Assembly: GCA_020697715.1 (NCBI GenBank)
Contig: JAEHCO010000003.1
Coordinates: 184,020 to 248,019 of the forward strand
From: Methanobacteriota archaeon
GTDB taxonomy: Archaea > Thermoplasmatota > Thermoplasmata > SG8-5 > JAGLSY01
Direction: 5' to 3'
Length of the DNA stretch: 64,000 nt
Within the stretch, counting starts at the first letter, position 1; the number at the start of each line of letters is the position of its first letter. Position numbers: made by a program. Positions 12,001-54,000 of the stretch are shown piece by piece.

Positions 12001-15000
12001 ATCACCTTTTAGAACAACAATGGCATTATTGGTGAACCCATCTGGGAAGGCAGTTGTATGATTGGCATGAATGAAAGTAATATTATCACCCTCATCAACT
12101 AGTAAGAACTCATCAGATGAGACATTCCAATCCCTCACAACGCCCTTGATACTGATCTCCTTGTCAAGGTATTTGGCTGTGTCATCAGCCACCTGGTGCA
12201 CCTCGTATATCTCTTCAGGGACCATGCCCCAGAGTAGGATGCCGACAATGACAACGACGACCACGATGAAAACACCGAGCTTGATCTGCTTCTCGGTGAC
12301 CTTCTTCTTTGGCTTTGTTTCAGCCTTTATTTCAGGATCAATTACCTTCTCCTGAATCTCGGTTTCGTCCATCCATAACCTCCTTCAGCATTTTCATTTC
12401 CCTTCCCAATTTTTTCTGATCAAACATCAGCTTGACCAGATAAGCGAAGGTCAGTCCCCAAATTATAGAGTATCCAATGTACATGTAAGTAATATCATCC
12501 ATCTTTAACCTCTCCATTCTGAATCTATGATTTTGTCGAGCTTTTCTGATGCTCTGTCCATACTATAATTCGAGCGCATCAGAAATCACCTATTTCTTGC
12601 TTTATTTCTTCTATTTCTTCTCTAGTTGTCTCCAGGTCGGTCTTGATCATCAAGATACCCAGATAAAGGAATGTGAAGGCAAAGACCGCTGTTACCAGTG
12701 TCTGCACCATGGGAGTCTGAAGACTTCCACTTTCGGAAGCTATAACCGTGGGATGGAACTGTGTCCATATCCTATTGGCTGCAAAGCTCAGGGGGATGCA
12801 TAGGAAGCCGATTATCCCGAAAACCGCGCTCATCCGGGCTCTCGCCTTGCCCGGATCGCTATTCGACCTTAGAGCGAGGTAAGCGATGAATACCAGCCAC
12901 AGGACCATGGTCATGAACAATTTCATATCATCCCATATCCAGAAGACACCCCAAACACCCTTGGCCCACAATGCGCCAGTGATGATGGCCGCGGTACAGA
13001 AGACCACGCCGATTTCGGCTGATGAGTAAGCCAATATGTCATATTTCATATTGGATGTTTTCAGATATAGAAGACTGCCGAGCAGAGTGATACCAAATGC
13101 CAGGTATGAGACCCAGGCCGATGCGACATGGAAATAGAAAATGCGCTGAACATCGCCCATTGTGTCATGGGTGGGAGCCCAAAGGAAGGCCATGTACAAT
13201 CCTGTGAATGTAAGAGCCGCGGAGGCCAGTAACATAATTATTGTTAATATATTCTTCTTTGTCATGTCATTCCTCAATTATGTAATCTATCATCAGGTAA
13301 CCGCTGGCTACAAAGATTATATCGAATGCCAATATAAGCTTTATCCCATTGGATAGATCCGCCAAGACCGCTCCATCGAATATCTGGAAAGTGGCTTCCA
13401 CCGATGTCATGATGACCGTGAAGAGCAGGATGGGTATGAGCAGGACCGGGAGCATGACCTGGCTCTGTGACAAGTTTGCCGAAATAGCCGAGATCAGATT
13501 TCCCAGAGCCGTGAAGCCGATGGTTCCCAGCACGATGATGCCCAGTAACATTCCCATATCTGGCATGGGTTGGGCGAAGAAGGCGAAGAATATCATTGTT
13601 GAGAATAAGTTCAATCCGAGTATTATGATGAAGGTTGCCAGGAACTTACCGAAATAGATGGAAGAAGCGGATATCGGAGCCAGCATCAATCCTTCTTTCG
13701 TTCCCTGCTCTACCTCTCTCTGGTAGATGGGAGCTAGTGCGAACATCCCGCTGAAGAAGAAAGTTATCCATAGGATCGGAGACGCCAGTTCGGTCTCCGA
13801 GAAATCAATGAATTCGAATATGAACCTGAAGGAAGCCAGTATCATCAATGAAAGAATGAGCATGGAATTGATCATCTGCTTGTTCCTGAACTCGATCCTC
13901 AGCTCTTTCAGGAATATCGCACGGGTGGCACTAATGACCCTCACCCCCTAATATCTCCTTGTATTTGGATAGGAATTCTCCTGTCTCCGCATTGTCATCG
14001 TCTATGATCTTTCCTTTGGACAGGATGCCTCTTCGCGTGGCTATCTCCATTCCTTTTTCTAGGTCATGGGTGATCATGAAGAATGTCACCCCTTCTTGAT
14101 TCATTTTCTCGATGACCTTGTTCAGCATGGCCTGTGCATTGAGATCGAGACCGGAATACGGCTCATCCAGGAAAACAAGTTCTGGTGAGTGGAGAAGGGT
14201 TCTGGCCAGAGCCAGTCTCTGCTTCATCCCCCTGGAGAAGGAGCCCACCTTGTCGAATGACCTGTGATAGAGTTCCACCATCTTCAGCATCTCTTCAATC
14301 CTTTTCTCTTTGTTTGGAATTGAATAAAGGTCTGCGAAGAAATCCAGGTTCTCATGAGCCGTGAGATCCCTGTAAAGATATGGCTCATGGGACATGAATC
14401 CTATTTTTCTGCGAATGTCTTTGAGATCGTCCTCCGCGCTCATACCAAAGTGAGAGATCTCTCCTTTATCCGAGTGTATGAGGGTGGCCAGTATCTTGAC
14501 CAGGGTGGTCTTACCGACACCATTGGAACCAAAGAGAACATAAACATCTCCTTTGTGAAGTTCCAGATCCAGACCATTGAGCACGTTCTTCTTTCCGAAG
14601 CTTCTACGTATGCCCTTGGCCTTGAGAATTCCATCTGCCATTGATACGATGGAATTCATTGTTATTATTAAAACCTTCTAATATAGCAAAGGAAAGCATC
14701 ATCTTCTGGGTTCTTCCCCGAACATGTCGATGTCCTTGAGCTCATCAGGGTGATGGTGCTTCATCTGTTCACGTGTCATCTTTCCCGTGAGCCAGGTCAT
14801 CTGCATTGGATCATCTGGTAGGAAATGCACATTGTAAAAGTGAGATATTATAACGACCAGTGTGGCGACGAAAGCCTCGTAGAAATGCATAACTCCGGCC
14901 AGGTTCACCCAGCCAAATGGTATGAATTTCAATGCAACGAAGGGGAACCATAGTATGAAACCAGATATTCCCATGACCAGTATACCCCAGACAACACCCC

Positions 15001-51000: not shown

Positions 51001-54000
51001 CCCAATCTGGCTGCCACTACATCATTGTGGCATCCACTTGCACCATCACCGCAATTCACATCATTTCCACCAATATATGTATGAGATTCTCCGACCTTGG
51101 TCCATGTATATGTATTCTCATGTGTTGAGAAACTGGTCTCCACATTCGTGATCGCATAGCTCACATCGATAGTGAAATTATAATAATCTGGACGTTCATA
51201 AGTTACATTGACATCGAAGCCAGTATGACAAACTATGCAGGCTTCATTGGGTCCTTTATTGTAGATGCTCGCTCCTGCATTGGAGAACATATCTTGGTGT
51301 GCTTCTGTACTATAACTTATATTGGTCGCCACGGTATCATGACAACTAATACAACTAGGCAATGCCGCAACGTGCTGGTCATCATACTCATTAGAAACAT
51401 CCTGATGACAATCTGGACAGGTCATTCCCTCATGTGGCTCAGTACCAGGGGTACCTAACATGTCTGTGAATTCCAGGCCGACATCATCATGGCAATCGAG
51501 ACAAGCCTTTCCAGTGTTCCAATCATGTTGTGAGGAGAACAATGATACCGTGATAGCTCCAATAGAAATAGCGGCTATAGCCAGTATCATTATCAAAAGC
51601 AAGGCCTTTTTTGATATCACTATGGATGGGGTAGGAGTGAACGCCTTCGCTGTAGTGGCACTAAAAGATGAATCCGCACCCGGGTCGCCCCCGACCTCCG
51701 GTTTCATATCTGGCTGACTATCAATGTCAGGTCCATTTTCTATTTCCATTGCCATGTTGATCCGCAAGCTTTGGTTGGTTAAACTATATATTTATTATAG
51801 TTATGTTAAACAGTGTATGTAACCTATTTAATATAATAGTTACGGGCTTATTTTCAATAAGCCAGATTATGCGCCATAATACACAACCGAAAGGCATATA
51901 AAAGTCAGTGATATGTCCTCTTATTGGAGAAAGTCTCATGCAAATTGAAGAGTACACATTTCCGGATGACCTGTATTTCCACAAGGAACACTACTGGGCA
52001 AGAGTAGAAGGCGACGTTGTAGTTATTGGCGTTAGCGATTTCGCTCAGAAGCTGGCAGGAACAATTAAAAGAGTGGTCACACTGGAAGAAGACGATGAGA
52101 TCGTCCGCGACAAGCCAATTGGTACATTGTCTAGCGGGAAATGGACAGGAAAATTATACGCACCTATCAGTGGTGAGATAGTTGAGGTAAATGAGGATAT
52201 CGAGGATGAGCCAAATCTCATCAATGAGGATCCTTATGGAGAAGGCTGGGTCATAAAAGTGGAACCTAGTGACCTCGATGCAGACCTCGCCACCCTCAAG
52301 AAGCCAGGCCCAGAGTTCGAGGCCTGGATGAAGAAAGAGATCGAAGAAAAGAAAGCTTTGGTAAAGTAAAATTGACCAAAGGCGATCTGTCGGGATCTTT
52401 GCGTTGTTAGTATTGTCATATAGTGTAGCTTGAAGCTTGCGTATTTGGGCGCAAGCTTTTTTTCAATTTATGGATTATTGGGTATGGTAGGTGTTTAGGG
52501 TTTTAGAAAGATTGACACCCCCGCCATTCTGACGGGGTTCTAGGGATCCATTTTTAATTGTCACTCGAATTCTCATCGAATCCAGTACCCCGCCCTTATG
52601 AATATTTAATGAATGATCCAGACGGGGCATGCCGTTGAGAAACGCTTTGCAGGCTTCGCGCAAAGCTCTACTTCTTAAAAATGGGCTTGCAGTTGACAGC
52701 CCGATTCATTCTGTCTGGTCCCAATAATCTCATCGACATCTCCAGGGTCCAGTTCCTCTTGAAGGCCTTGTCCGCCATCCTCTTTGTATCCAGAGCATTA
52801 TCCAGCTCTGGGCCGACATTCATCCTCCACTCTTCCTCGTATTTTTGGAGTGGTGTGTTGTCCTTGAAATTCTGAGCTATGACATTTCCAGCTATCCTGC
52901 CGCATATCATGGATATCGGTATACCGCCTCCATTTGTCGCCATCACTTGTCCAGCCGCATCCCCGACTATCATTACATTATCTTTGACAGTTTGCGGGAT
53001 GGGCCCTGATATTGGAACAAATCCCGCACTCAATTGCTCGATCTTTCCCAGGCCTCGGACCTTTAGGAATTTATCCAACATATTCCTCAATGACACATTC
53101 CCTGTCTTCTGAATGCCAAGGCCGACATTCGCCCCGTCGCCCTTTGGGATCACCCAGGCATAGCCGCCAGGTGCGATCGTGCCGAAGAACATCTCCACAA
53201 TAGGCTCGAAATCCCCGGATACCTGTCCGAGCATGCAGGGGCACAGGACATGCTCGACCTGCATTCCTGCGGATTCTGCAACTTTGGATTTGAAACCATC
53301 GGCTCCGACAATGACCTTCGCTTTTATGCTTCCTTTATCGGTCTCGACCATGTTTCCATCTAAGGACAGGAATTTTGTCCCTGTCCTTAGGTCGGCTCCC
53401 GCATCTGTCGCCTTGCTGGCCAGATGTTTGTCGAAGTATCTTCTATCTACTGTGAATCCTTCAAAATCAATGTCATATTTCCGGTTCTTAGGTGATACGA
53501 ACCGGATCTTCTCCGTCTTCATCTTGATAAGCCCGTCATCGATATTGAAAAGCTCTGATTGATCCTTCACCCTGGGTATGATCCTTTTCATCTCATTGGT
53601 GGATGGTATGAACTCCCCGCATTGAACTGGCTCACCAACTGCTTTTCTCTGATCGATGATAATTACATTTAAGCCAGATCTGGCTGCATAATATGCTGTT
53701 GAACTTCCTGCAGGCCCGGCTCCGATAACTGCGACATCGAATTCTTCCATTTTGGATCACTCTGTTCTTGTTTACAATTTTCACGATCATCAATGATTTC
53801 TGTCCACTGCGAAATCGGACAGTGCCAGTAGCTTGTCCCATTCTTCAGTTCTGGTATTTATCTGCTCCAATGCGTCGCTCGCCTTGTTCCCGTAAACCAT
53901 GGAGAGATCATGGGCATAATCAATAGAGCCAACATCCTTCATGATCCTGATGGCCTCCATGATATCATCATTGGAATTCTCATTATTTGTTATGACCTTC

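Follow-up and report, generated by a model that had tools for sequence, protein, structure and literature searches.

A multihaem cytochrome c island with its own maturation genes in a Thermoplasmata archaeon: parts for a possible outward electron chain

Cytochrome genes and maturation system at the locus

We analysed a stretch of 64,000 nucleotides (the window, to which all coordinates refer) from a contig of a Methanobacteriota archaeon placed in the Thermoplasmata. ORF translation revealed six c-type cytochrome genes with 8, 1, 11, 1, 4 and 22 in-frame CxxCH motifs, 47 in total. The genome-wide survey's note had listed only four such genes, with 8, 11, 4 and 22 motifs (45 together); those counts were reproduced, and two single-haem ORFs at 16672-17499 (minus strand) and 36995-37660 (plus strand) account for the higher total. 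The coding pattern TGYN6TGYCAY occurred 56 times on both strands of the window (47 in-frame sites and 9 background sites) against 5.84 +/- 2.55 expected from 100 shuffles, none of which reached 56, which amounts to an about tenfold enrichment. Fixed 20-kb bins held 13, 17 and 26 sites against ∼1.8 expected per 20 kb; of the densities noted earlier (26, 21 and 21, with 1.7-2.4 expected) the 26 and the expectation were thus recovered, the two values of 21 not. All ORFs with at least four CxxCH motifs in the 2.12-Mb genome lie inside the window. As judged from their sequences, the six proteins are probably exported or anchored and carry conserved haem c sites; the number of non-motif histidines at least equals the motif count in each multihaem protein, and these further histidines would suffice for bis-His ligation.

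The island had been placed at 12579-51767 in window coordinates. Its content is real, while this start is too late, since a CcmE-like haem chaperone is encoded just outside at 11929..12372 (minus strand; PF03100, E 3.1e-6, 27.9 bits against a cut-off of 24.6). This protein has an N-terminal anchor and, near its C-terminus, a CPSKY motif of the archaeal type, CxxxY being a mark of archaeal CcmE (PMC9084895). At higher coordinates lie the minus-strand genes for CcmC (12579..13277; PF01578, E 3.4e-28; TIGR01191, E 3.7e-30, below its cut-off), which has six predicted helices and the WWD motif WGVFWIWDD, for the haem exporter permease CcmB (13267..13944; PF03379, E 5.9e-21), and for a CcmA-like ABC ATPase (13931..14659; PF00005, E 1.9e-30; TIGR01189 ccmA, 127.9 bits, slightly below the cut-off of 131.6), whose gene overlaps ccmB by 14 nt. 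The haem lyase CcmF is encoded on the plus strand at 23254..25377 (PF01578, E 3.4e-29; PF16327, E 1.4e-12; TIGR00353, E 1.1e-56) and has the WWD motif WGGYWGWDP. CcmA, B, C and F and a b561-like cytochrome, all named by the survey, were confirmed with Pfam and NCBIfam. By the archaeal definition given in PMC9084895, the predicted CcmA/B/C/E/F set is a complete streamlined archaeal System I; CcmH was not found within the window. Elsewhere in the genome, on contig C11, lie genes for sirohaem-dependent haem b synthesis (AhbA/B/C/D and HemABCL).

The ten genes from the 11-haem gene to CcmE form one minus-strand run with spacings of -14 to 85 nt, except for 206 nt before CcmE. CcmE is followed, 59 nt downstream, by the final gene of this strand's run, a 117-aa ORF with two hydrophobic helices (11516..11869, minus strand) that matched nothing in Pfam or NCBIfam and that we tentatively assign to the island. 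Genes of an 11-subunit Nuo/Fpo-like complex flank the island, and Hdr/MvhD-type genes lie at 1880-11360.

Membrane modules, small carriers and a giant cytochrome

The 8-haem cytochrome (15404..16654, minus strand; PF14522 and PF14537) has hydrophobic stretches at residues 29-47 and 352-370, N- and C-terminal helices that enclose the haem part, and is 92% identical to its orthologue in the sister species. Its gene directly abuts (gap of 0) that of cytochrome b1, a four-helix membrane cytochrome of the b561/FdnI/HydC type (14699..15403, minus strand; PF01292, E 1.3e-10; TIGR01583, formate dehydrogenase gamma, E 3.5e-12 with a score below its cut-off). The 8-haem protein has 858 relatives at E<=1e-5, Methanoperedens proteins with 33-35% identity among them, and in at least 17 of 120 listed relatives PF01292 is fused in the same chain. 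A multihaem c domain and a cytochrome b in one chain is also the architecture of CbcL (PMC6295460), and cytochrome b1 is the probable partner of the 8-haem protein. The adjoining gene encodes a single-haem surface protein with a CARDB domain (16672..17499, minus strand; 1 CxxCH; PF07705; NF041762 GEGP dihaem-like, E 3.3e-14), which ends in a PGF-type sorting signal (PAPGF with a helix and then basic residues behind it); the genome also encodes archaeosortase A (117.5 bits, cut-off 75).

A second module is built around the 11-CxxCH cytochrome (19906..21255, minus strand), which begins with an N-terminal helical hairpin. Two CX3CH and one CX4CH motifs bring it to 14 sites, invariant in all six aligned orthologues. 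Its first module is NrfH/NapC-like (TIGR03153 NrfH, E 6.5e-12, below cut-off; the g10 orthologue matches PF03264). The family is rare, with 194 of 1.84 billion representatives matching at E<=1e-3. Next to it we found cytochrome b2, a divergent four-helix cytochrome b (19120..19893, minus strand) that was missing from the survey's parts list. It has no direct Pfam match itself; its counterpart in L017, with which it shares 33% identity (E 3e-52), does match PF01292 (E 2.3e-9), and His 65, 79, 163 and 208 are invariant. Cytochrome b2 thus appears to be a conserved partner of the 11-haem protein. Its gene overlaps by 4 nt that of a GlcD-like FAD-linked 2-hydroxyacid dehydrogenase (17585..19123, minus strand; PF01565 and PF02913; TIGR00387 glcD, E 2.1e-58, below cut-off), whose position is kept in G021, a second species of the genus, and in G139, from another family (61% identity over 152 aa). 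Two plus-strand genes on either side of CcmF complete this half. One, with its position kept in G021, encodes a 566-aa protein (21432..23132) without a Pfam match, laid out as a signal peptide, a beta-rich outer domain, one helix and an acidic cytoplasmic tail. The other encodes an HdrD/GlcF/TfrB-like iron-sulfur protein with two CCG domains (25486..26784; PF02754, E 1.4e-31; PF13183), for which TfrB was the best NCBIfam match (E 1.9e-46, below its cut-off); it possibly pairs with the GlcD-like enzyme or connects to thiol/disulfide chemistry.

The second half of the island begins on the plus strand with a UbiE/MenG-type quinone C-methyltransferase (36250..36948; TIGR01934, 191 bits against a cut-off of 158), followed by a single-haem protein that starts with a signal peptide and is anchored at its C-terminus (36995..37660; 1 CxxCH; NF041895 choice-of-anchor V, E 4.2e-10), which has an orthologue at the same position in G139, and by an anchored PKD/Ig-like surface protein (37657..38748; PF22352, E 2.4e-13). 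The 4-haem cytochrome (38915..39547, plus strand; 4 CxxCH), anchored or secreted, is 35% identical to residues 73-191 of the giant cytochrome (E 2e-15) with all four motifs aligned, and by this similarity is a paralogue of the giant's first four-haem module. Three further plus-strand genes lie between it and the giant. They encode an archaeal-type signal peptidase I (39618..40505; TIGR02228, 66.7 bits against a cut-off of 51.85), its position kept in G139; a TPR and zinc-ribbon protein with four predicted helices (40524..42530; TPR families); and a 487-aa paralogue of the 566-aa protein (42527..43990; E 7e-19). The G139 orthologue of the TPR protein weakly matches the CcmH/CycH TPR family PF23914 (E 1.7e-5, below cut-off), and we regard this protein as a candidate maturation or assembly factor. 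The stop codon of the 487-aa gene is 4 nt from that of the giant's gene; its AlphaFold model (mean pLDDT 61) is all-beta at residues 75-290 (pLDDT 76-90) and gave no confident structural match and no Atlas match.

The giant cytochrome (43995..51767, minus strand) comprises 2590 aa from a TTG start, or 2584 aa in the public gene call. Its reported length and N-terminal membrane anchor were both confirmed. Besides the 22 CxxCH motifs it has two CX3CH and six CX4CH sites, 30 in all; the CX3CH and CX4CH sites of the island may need an extra maturation step. From the N-terminus, a cytoplasmic end, the anchor (hydrophobic stretch 56-74) and a six-haem module are followed by ∼830 haem-free residues with four beta-sandwich repeats of ∼106 aa, and then by 16 CxxCH, two CX3CH and six CX4CH sites in CxxxxCH/CxxCH domains (TIGR01904, 102.3 bits against a cut-off of 27, in six stretches). 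The repeat model folds as a beta-sandwich (pLDDT 86.3) and weakly resembles carbohydrate-binding modules (best Foldseek E 4.4e-3, TM about 0.6). The family of the haem-free centre is also found in ∼1750-aa proteins with adhesin, CARDB or PKD domains. Only nine matches of similar length, one of them full-length, were found among 5.8 billion proteins.

Distribution and metabolic context

The survey had called the host a relative of the Methanomassiliicoccales, which holds in so far as its named relatives are labelled as Thermoplasmata, Methanomassiliicoccales or Methanobacteriota archaea. The host is related to gut and sediment methanogens but lacks the methane enzyme, mcrA being absent from its genome and from all 22 genomes of its order, and it carries a full kit for haem-packed proteins. 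Gene order is identical in G021 (on a 257-kb contig), and that of the second half is kept in G139. In agreement with the survey, the giant is full-length in one relative, G021 (87-88% identity), with pieces in three others (G125, G132 and G139), and the 11-haem protein matches over most of its length in 8 class genomes, the host's included, out of 15 of 401 with any match. CcmF was found in 23 of the 401 class genomes and in none of the 18 genomes of the order outside the genus.

The 93.8%-complete genome encodes two [NiFe] hydrogenase large subunits, and a search of it for a molybdopterin oxidoreductase, cytochrome bd, haem-copper oxidase or nitrate reductase found none. A MenA-like prenyltransferase (below its cut-offs) and the MenG/UbiE gene are present. 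Of the quinone head-group pathway, MqnA/D and MenD were not found and MenB was only sub-threshold.

The first mention that the survey implies holds for the accessible text of the preprint on these clades. It does not hold for the wider group: in the parts of three papers available to us, multihaem cytochromes were noted in a Thermoplasmatota genome and direct interspecies transfer speculated upon (PMC10570749), transfer of MtrA from Thermoplasmata was inferred (PMC10415592), and a 2015 survey recorded cytochromes c in two single-cell Thermoplasmatales genomes (PMC4429474).

A proposed electron chain and its alternatives

We hold, with moderate confidence, that the island is a self-contained kit for making and running a c-type cytochrome chain, by which respiratory electrons would leave the cytoplasmic membrane for extracellular acceptors (a partner cell, humic substances or Fe(III)/Mn(IV) minerals); function, location and the direction of electron flow are inferences, and no feature of the sequences sets that direction. 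Electrons would come from the Nuo/Fpo-like complex and possibly from the co-transcribed GlcD-like dehydrogenase with the HdrD-like protein. Two membrane modules would draw them out of the membrane. In one, which resembles the CbcL design of Geobacter split over two genes, the 8-haem protein would work with the FdnI-type cytochrome b1; in the other, the 14-site protein with its NrfH/NapC-like start would work with cytochrome b2. Above the membrane, relay to the anchored giant may fall to the 4-haem and single-haem proteins. The giant would take the electrons farther outward through a C-terminal array of ∼24 sites, which its beta-sandwich repeats, of a family common to large surface proteins of the class, would keep at a distance from the membrane. 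Processing or placement of the cytochromes may be aided by the signal peptidase, by the TPR protein and by the paralogous pair at 21432-23132 and 42527-43990. This reading is supported by motifs that are in frame, enriched and invariant in orthologues; by the complete maturation system and haem b pathway; by a b-type cytochrome beside both large membrane cytochromes; by tight gene packing and an order kept in G021 and partly in G139; by the surface-protein family and repeats in the giant's haem-free centre; and by the finding of no other respiratory end in the genome. The survey's proposal of parts for extracellular electron transfer accordingly stands as a parts list that fits published models, now with CcmE, cytochrome b2, the signal peptidase and the giant's surface module added. 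Against it count the missing quinone head-group pathway, the lack of a recognisable S-layer domain in the giant, whose repeats match carbohydrate-binding modules only weakly, the weak local NrfA match of the 8-haem protein, and the extra maturation step that CX3CH and CX4CH sites may need. Should a second membrane be present, as the available part of PMC4429474 describes for cultured relatives, another component would be needed.

The proposed chain also matches, point by point, the model for ANME-2/'Ca. Methanoperedens' in the accessible part of PMC9012536. Shared are a b561/VhtC-type cytochrome b beside a 7-11-haem protein ('Mco'), small carriers, an anchored cytochrome of very large size that is interrupted by a haem-free structural part, next to it a signal peptidase (there adjoining CcmF) and a membrane protein, and a streamlined CcmABCEF. 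By the same text, however, the island differs in its host, of another class without methane metabolism, in the giant's anchor (N-terminal rather than C-terminal), in beta-sandwich repeats common to Thermoplasmatota surface proteins instead of a DUF1608 S-layer domain, in a CxxxxCH/CxxCH-type haem array, in having a pair of b/c modules, of which one is linked to the gene of a flavoprotein dehydrogenase, and in a carrier that, as far as known, would not be methanophenazine. By domain layout, the 8-haem module resembles CbcL of Geobacter sulfurreducens, an outer multihaem c domain with a membrane FdnI-type cytochrome b; in CbcL a nine-haem domain is fused to a HydC/FdnI dihaem cytochrome b, whereas the island module is split over two genes and has 8 motifs (PMC6295460). 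With its NrfH/NapC-like first module the 14-site protein recalls the CymA/NapC and ImcH quinol oxidases of that 2018 survey, which found no archaeal homologues, but the island protein has some 10 sites more and is paired with a cytochrome b. The giant's C-terminal 1400 residues contain at least six domains of the CxxxxCH/CxxCH type (TIGR01904/PF09698, defined from Geobacter), here joined in one protein to the TM anchor, the six-haem module and the surface-protein repeats. By description, the large cytochromes of Ferroglobus/Geoglobus (up to 33 CxxCH; available part of PMC4429474) resemble those of the island in their archaeal host, in very high haem numbers and in maturation by System I; these, however, are Archaeoglobales, and Ferroglobus has CcmH, which was not found in the window.

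The same hardware might run inward or both ways, with Fe(II), a cathode-like mineral or a syntrophic partner as the donor and with the Hdr-type and hydrogenase systems, reached through the b-cytochromes, as the destination. Multihaem chains are in principle reversible, the Hdr/MvhD-type genes and the hydrogenases are possible internal sinks, and CbcL/MtoC/MtrH-type proteins are also known from metal oxidisers (PMC6295460). We nevertheless regard this as unlikely: the searches found no oxidase or nitrate reductase as recipient, the co-transcribed partner of the cytochromes is a dehydrogenase, an electron source, and low-potential sinks demand an energy input that no island gene explains. It seems improbable that the island is an ordinary anaerobic respiration outside the membrane, in which at least one cytochrome would act enzymatically on a soluble compound (nitrite, hydroxylamine, sulfite, tetrathionate or polysulfide). 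The 8-haem protein does match NrfA (E 7e-5) and PF02335 (E 6.6e-5), and the accessible part of PMC13502194 describes octahaem proteins adjoining cytochrome b561 as functionally diverse; the NrfA match, however, is weak and local, spanning only ∼58 residues (148-205), none of the six cytochrome ORFs has the catalytic CxxCK motif, and the 17 PDB sequences that matched the 8-haem protein at E<=1 include no octahaem tetrathionate reductase. A 2590-aa anchored 30-site protein with adhesin-like repeats also fits poorly with such an enzyme.

It is improbable, too, that the cytochromes mainly link the Nuo/Fpo-like complex and the HdrD-like enzyme in the membrane, as MmcA in Methanosarcina, with external transfer a side activity. 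The positions of the HdrD-like gene beside CcmF and of the Nuo/Fpo-like genes at the flanks would agree with this, and MmcA is reported, in the available part of PMC11024163, to take part in both internal and external transport, but HdrD-type proteins are cytoplasmic while the haem c domains are all predicted outside, and internal transfer has no need for a 30-site surface protein, a signal peptidase or archaeosortase-sorted carriers. We give hardly any credence to an assembly or binning artefact or an unused, recently acquired foreign block, despite the patchy spread of CcmF: the island sits in a 248-kb contig between the archaeal housekeeping genes GatD/E, RNase Z and Nuo, recurs in the same order in G021, and has all frames open and its motifs conserved. 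The identity of its proteins to G139 (45-72%) is below that of GatD in that family (81-84%) and so does not suggest recent transfer. The GC content of the giant's gene (0.52 against about 0.45 elsewhere) might point to foreign origin; its rise coincides with the haem-rich C-terminal half, and we suspect that residue composition is the cause.

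Haem-binding sites, maturation and haem supply

The window forms the last 64 kb of the 248-kb contig C28 in a genome of 2.12 Mb (34 contigs, 93.8% complete), and contains no tRNA genes and no matches to Rfam families. On translating its long ORFs, we obtained the same in-frame CxxCH counts that the genome-wide survey's note had reported for four multihaem proteins, namely 8 (15404-16654, minus strand), 11 (19906-21255, minus strand), 4 (38915-39547, plus strand) and 22 for the 2590-aa giant cytochrome (43995-51767, minus strand). Two single-haem ORFs (16672-17499 and 36995-37660) were found in addition. 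The coding pattern TGYN6TGYCAY occurred 56 times in the window against 5.84 ± 2.55 times in 100 shuffled sequences, none of which reached 56; 47 of these occurrences are in-frame CxxCH sites, and the remaining 9 correspond to the chance level. In a six-frame scan of the whole genome, every ORF with at least four motifs fell inside the window. With CX3CH and CX4CH included, the number of sites rises to 30 in the giant and to 14 in the 11-haem protein (hereafter the 14-site protein), and all 14 are invariant across six aligned orthologues. Non-motif histidines are at least as numerous as the motifs in every multihaem protein of the island. Judged by their CxxCH sites, export or anchor signals, potential distal ligands and conservation, these four proteins would thus classify as multihaem c-type cytochromes. 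As a class-wide multihaem marker, PF14537 was positive in 11 of 401 genomes and in 0 control genomes, while missing those of a distant Thermoplasmata genus (g10) that encode a 14-site orthologue; this marker is insensitive and its counts are a lower bound only.

The presence of CcmA, CcmB, CcmC and CcmF, as claimed for this region by the same note, was confirmed for all four by Pfam and NCBIfam. CcmA, CcmB and CcmC matched PF00005, PF03379 and PF01578, with CcmA scoring 127.9 bits on TIGR01189 (slightly below the cut-off of 131.6) and CcmC carrying the WWD motif WGVFWIWDD. CcmF matched PF01578 and PF16327 (the CcmF_C region), and its WWD motif reads WGGYWGWDP. Pfam and NCBIfam also identified a CcmE-like gene at 11929-12372, slightly beyond the island start as first proposed. 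Its product scored 27.9 bits on PF03100 (cut-off 24.6) and ends in CPSKY, which is a CxxxY and not an HxxxY motif. According to passages of PMC9084895, a CxxxY haem-binding motif in place of HxxxY is the criterion for archaeal CcmE, and a streamlined System I consisting of CcmABCEF with such a CcmE, and without CcmD, CcmH and CcmI, is sufficient in Methanosarcina acetivorans. The CcmD, CcmH and CcmI families had no matches among the 50 window ORFs; an orthologue of the island's TPR protein showed weak likeness to the CcmH/CycH TPR family (E 1.7e-5, below cut-off). By its gene content, the Ccm set of the island is thus predicted to be a streamlined archaeal System I, CcmABCEF. Haem itself is probably supplied by the sirohaem route to haem b, as a cluster on another contig (C11) encodes HemA, HemB, HemL, HemC, a CobA-HemD fusion, AhbA, AhbB and two AhbC/D-type radical SAM enzymes.

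The giant cytochrome and its neighbours

Prediction bears out the N-terminal membrane anchor previously ascribed to the giant, as one helix (residues 56-74) following a cytoplasmic N-terminus. The anchor is succeeded by a six-haem module, ~830 haem-free residues and a CxxxxCH/CxxCH array. Haems one to four of the six-haem module have paralogous counterparts in the free 4-haem protein (35% identity, E 2e-15). The giant scored 102.3 bits on TIGR01904 (cut-off 27) over 6 stretches, i.e. at least six domains, and matched PF09698 with E 6.3e-12; these matches place it among the CxxxxCH/CxxCH domain cytochromes (TIGR01904). A PDB sequence search returned no match at E≤1. Among 5.8 billion proteins there were nine matches of similar length, only one of which is full-length (87% identity).

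When the giant was compared with 401 genomes of the class, matches were found in 78, nearly all of which cover residues 450-1140 only and lie within other, 1200-2800-aa ORFs, including one in the giant's own genome. Used as a query, residues 560-1175 returned 23 proteins which, cytochrome relatives aside, are large hypothetical proteins, several with adhesin, CARDB or PKD domains. This central part contains four repeats of ~106 aa each, one of which was confidently modelled as a beta-sandwich (pLDDT 86.3). With Foldseek the repeat gave no match at E≤0.001 and a weak resemblance to carbohydrate-binding modules (CBMs), so that the modelled fold may be called CBM-like as a description only. Since the haem-free centre is common to large surface-type proteins, the giant is a cytochrome whose scaffold is that of surface proteins of its class, and not the S-layer domain of ANME type. 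The ANME giants MHC-A/B have an internal DUF1608 S-layer domain and a C-terminal anchor, whereas the protein described here has an N-terminal anchor and a different beta-sandwich insert. Assignment to the ANME S-layer-fused cytochromes was considered and rejected, as Pfam detected cytochrome families only and the anchor is N-terminal. In a fragmented genome (G132), the giant's orthologue at C149:3742-4788 has one in-frame TAG within the N-terminal match, which may reflect an error in sequencing, a disrupted gene or codon recoding.

Upstream of the giant lie genes for a single-haem protein, a PKD protein, the 4-haem protein and an archaeal signal peptidase I; further neighbours on this side encode a TPR/zinc-ribbon membrane protein and a 487-aa protein (42527-43990, plus strand). 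The gene order from the single-haem protein to the 487-aa protein is kept in a genome of another family (G139). The 487-aa protein and the 566-aa product of the gene adjoining CcmF (21432-23132, plus strand) are paralogues. The AlphaFold model of the former has a mean pLDDT of 61 and a beta-rich outer part. All that Foldseek matched to this model were adhesins and carbohydrate-binding modules, at low TM (0.13-0.19), and no usable match was present in the Protein Atlas. The model suggests a beta-rich ectodomain, to which we assign no finer fold. The other single-haem protein has a PGF-type sorting signal at its C-terminus, and archaeosortase A is encoded in the genome.

We also considered an MtrCAB-type porin-cytochrome conduit. 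No porin families were detected among the window ORFs, and the only MtrC-type match in the window was that of the 4-haem protein to the MtrC domain PF22113 (E 3.8e-5, below cut-off); this candidate was rejected. Further surface-type proteins are encoded nearby (33107-35686 and 58817-62414), including one of 859 aa that contains seven FG-GAP repeats, a beta-propeller of 639 aa (PF09826) and a 507-aa protein resembling beta-propellers.

Pairs of multihaem proteins and cytochromes b

The 8-haem protein is predicted to be extracellular and flanked by two helices, and its gene abuts, with a gap of 0, that of a four-helix b561/FdnI-type cytochrome b (cytochrome b1, 14699-15403, minus strand). Its family comprises 858 proteins at E≤1e-5. 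Among the 120 relatives listed, at least 17 carry PF01292 in the same chain, and Methanoperedens proteins are also among those listed (33-35% identity). A PDB sequence search gave short NrfA/c7 matches only. In PMC6295460, Geobacter CbcL is described as a fusion of a domain with nine haems to a dihaem cytochrome b of HydC/FdnI type. The design is the same, but here it is split over two adjacent genes whereas CbcL is one polypeptide. Since the two genes are adjacent without a gap and have fused relatives, the pair would by analogy work like CbcL, even though it falls outside the one-polypeptide definition of that protein. The layout of the island matches that of the Geobacter inner-membrane quinol oxidases too.

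The 14-site protein starts with a helical hairpin followed by an NrfH/NapC-like module, which matched TIGR03153 over residues 45-137 only (E 6.5e-12; 45.7 bits, cut-off 134.2); a g10 orthologue scored 32.2 bits on PF03264 (cut-off 24.1). In the PDB nothing close was found by sequence (best E 0.048). Directly after the 14-site gene comes that of cytochrome b2 (19120-19893, minus strand), a 257-aa four-helix protein with four invariant histidines. It has no direct Pfam match, yet shares 33% identity (E 3e-52) with the corresponding partner protein at locus L017 in distant Thermoplasmata, which does match PF01292. The subsequent gene, for a GlcD-like FAD dehydrogenase (17585-19123, minus strand), overlaps the cytochrome b2 gene by 4 nt and is probably translationally coupled to it. 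This triad was also found in a second species of the genus (G021) and in G139. A further gene, for an HdrD/GlcF-like protein, is located after CcmF on the other strand. A predicted complex between cytochrome b2 and the GlcD-like dehydrogenase, modelled together with FAD and two haems, scored 0.00, which gives no verdict either way.

With respect to quinones, the island contains MenG/UbiE and the genome a MenA-like prenyltransferase below its cut-offs, and searches for head-group genes yielded no MqnA/D, no MenD and only a sub-threshold MenB. A triad that passes electrons across the membrane without a quinone would fit the missing head-group pathway. We consider it a speculative and rather unlikely idea that the triad is a quinone-free conduit, in which electrons from a cytoplasmic 2-hydroxyacid dehydrogenase would pass directly over two b haems to the outer cytochromes and the giant. 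If true, an archaeon without a complete quinone pathway could use lactate- or glycolate-type substrates for respiration with extracellular acceptors. This would represent a new wiring of catabolism to extracellular electron transfer, and a sister group of the seventh methanogen order, itself non-methanogenic, would gain a respiratory lifestyle.

Respiratory context, electron flow and distribution

The island is bracketed by two clusters that together encode an 11-subunit Nuo/Fpo-like complex: NuoH, I, J, K, L, M, M and N upstream (window positions 60-1526 and the adjoining locus L028, C28:176500-184019), and NuoA, B, C and D downstream (55176-57806). No NuoE, NuoF or NuoG was seen in these three stretches. 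Two [NiFe] hydrogenase large subunits are encoded in the genome, in which searches for mcrA, molybdopterin oxidoreductases, cytochrome bd and haem-copper oxidase were negative.

As no other terminal reductase came to light, the best reading of the island in our opinion is that it passes electrons outward, to acceptors outside the cell, and we hold it with moderate confidence. The ANME model, as presented in parts of PMC9012536, comprises a 7-11-haem protein paired with a VhtC-type cytochrome b, small carriers and a giant surface cytochrome, with a signal peptidase and CcmF beside the giant; the layout of the island agrees with this item by item. The same proteins might alternatively carry electrons inward or in both directions, act catalytically on soluble substrates or have a mainly internal role, and these readings are rivals to outward transfer. 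That the island is an artefact is very unlikely because of its 248-kb archaeal context and conserved synteny.

Supplements aside, literature searches on multihaem cytochromes or extracellular electron transfer in Thermoplasmata, Thermoplasmatota or Methanomassiliicoccales yielded no account of such an island. As noted by the survey, the main text of a preprint on clades basal to the Methanomassiliicoccales is silent on haem and multihaem proteins; these non-methanogenic relatives are read there as fermenters or nitrate/oxygen respirers (10.1101/2020.03.09.984617). Passing mentions elsewhere concern multihaem cytochromes encoded by a Thermoplasmatota genome that came from a benzene culture (PMC10570749), an inferred transfer of MtrA from Thermoplasmata (PMC10415592) and cytochromes c encoded in two Thermoplasmatales single-cell genomes (PMC4429474), and a passage of PMC4153887 describes cultured Methanomassiliicoccales as lacking a membrane-bound cytochrome. 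A complete, conserved island in an order of the non-methanogenic relatives would widen the metabolic range of Thermoplasmata to include respiration linked to minerals or partner cells. Archaeal extracellular electron transfer would then no longer be confined to Archaeoglobales and methane oxidisers. The split CbcL-like module, the NapC-like protein accompanied by a dedicated cytochrome b and a flavoprotein gene, and the 30-site giant on a surface-protein scaffold would be compact test cases for electron passage through an archaeal envelope.

Among the sampled genomes of the class, CcmF_C was detected in 23 of 401 (14 above cut-off), including all three other genomes of the genus and none of the 18 in the rest of the order. 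The mcrA gene was absent from all 22 genomes of the order and present in 45 of 321 class genomes, all in four other families; none of the 20 CcmF-matching genomes in the mcrA sample has it. The 11-haem protein had matches in 15 of 401 genomes, of which eight, from the genus, from G139 and from three g10 genomes, cover the greater part of it; in 1.84 billion representative proteins there were 194 matches at E≤1e-3 and 25 at E≤1e-30. The g10 orthologues are 880-915 aa long, with 20-22 CxxCH and 8-10 variant sites. For GatD, which served as identity baseline since NuoD was unusable (37% in G139, perhaps a paralogue; no match in g10), identity between this genome and family f2 was 81-84%, against 45-72% for the cytochromes. 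By these identities the island seems to predate any recent transfer; it would then have been lost from many lineages, or else transferred among members of the order.

Several observations concern adjacent genes and other lineages. HdrC-like and HdrB-like proteins are encoded by an Hdr-type run at 1880-11360, in this genome without mcrA. The run also holds genes for an HdrA-like fusion (1491 aa; several flavin and 4Fe-4S domains), for MvhD, for two iron-sulfur proteins and for an NAD-binding oxidoreductase. Inside the island, a lipoate-assembly cluster (26781-33033) encodes LplA-like and GcvH-like proteins, LipS2, an LplA-LplB fusion with DUF116, a geranylgeranyl-reductase-like flavoprotein and LipS1; a second GcvH gene is located at 51908-52369. 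We take this cluster to resemble the lipoate genes that accompany sulfur-oxidising Hdr-like (sHdr) systems. As the glycine-cleavage P protein is present in three of the four genomes of the genus, the lipoate and GcvH genes may be housekeeping. In the family f30, one genome (G382, 99% complete) has CcmF_C above cut-off (E 9.9e-10), and both other sampled members have mcrA. At four loci in two other families (L009-L012; G309, G026, G047, G067), a gene for a ~315-aa 11-12-haem protein is followed by one for a ~245-aa protein whose N-terminus, judged by eye, is bc1/b6-type cytochrome b-like. The g10-type cytochrome was found at L017 (CP070751.1, 4585939-4607534) and in G002, G029 and G059, all of the distant Thermoplasmata genus, whose genomes are unusually large (3.2-5.2 Mb), with a PF01292 cytochrome b gene following it and CcmF ~10 kb away.
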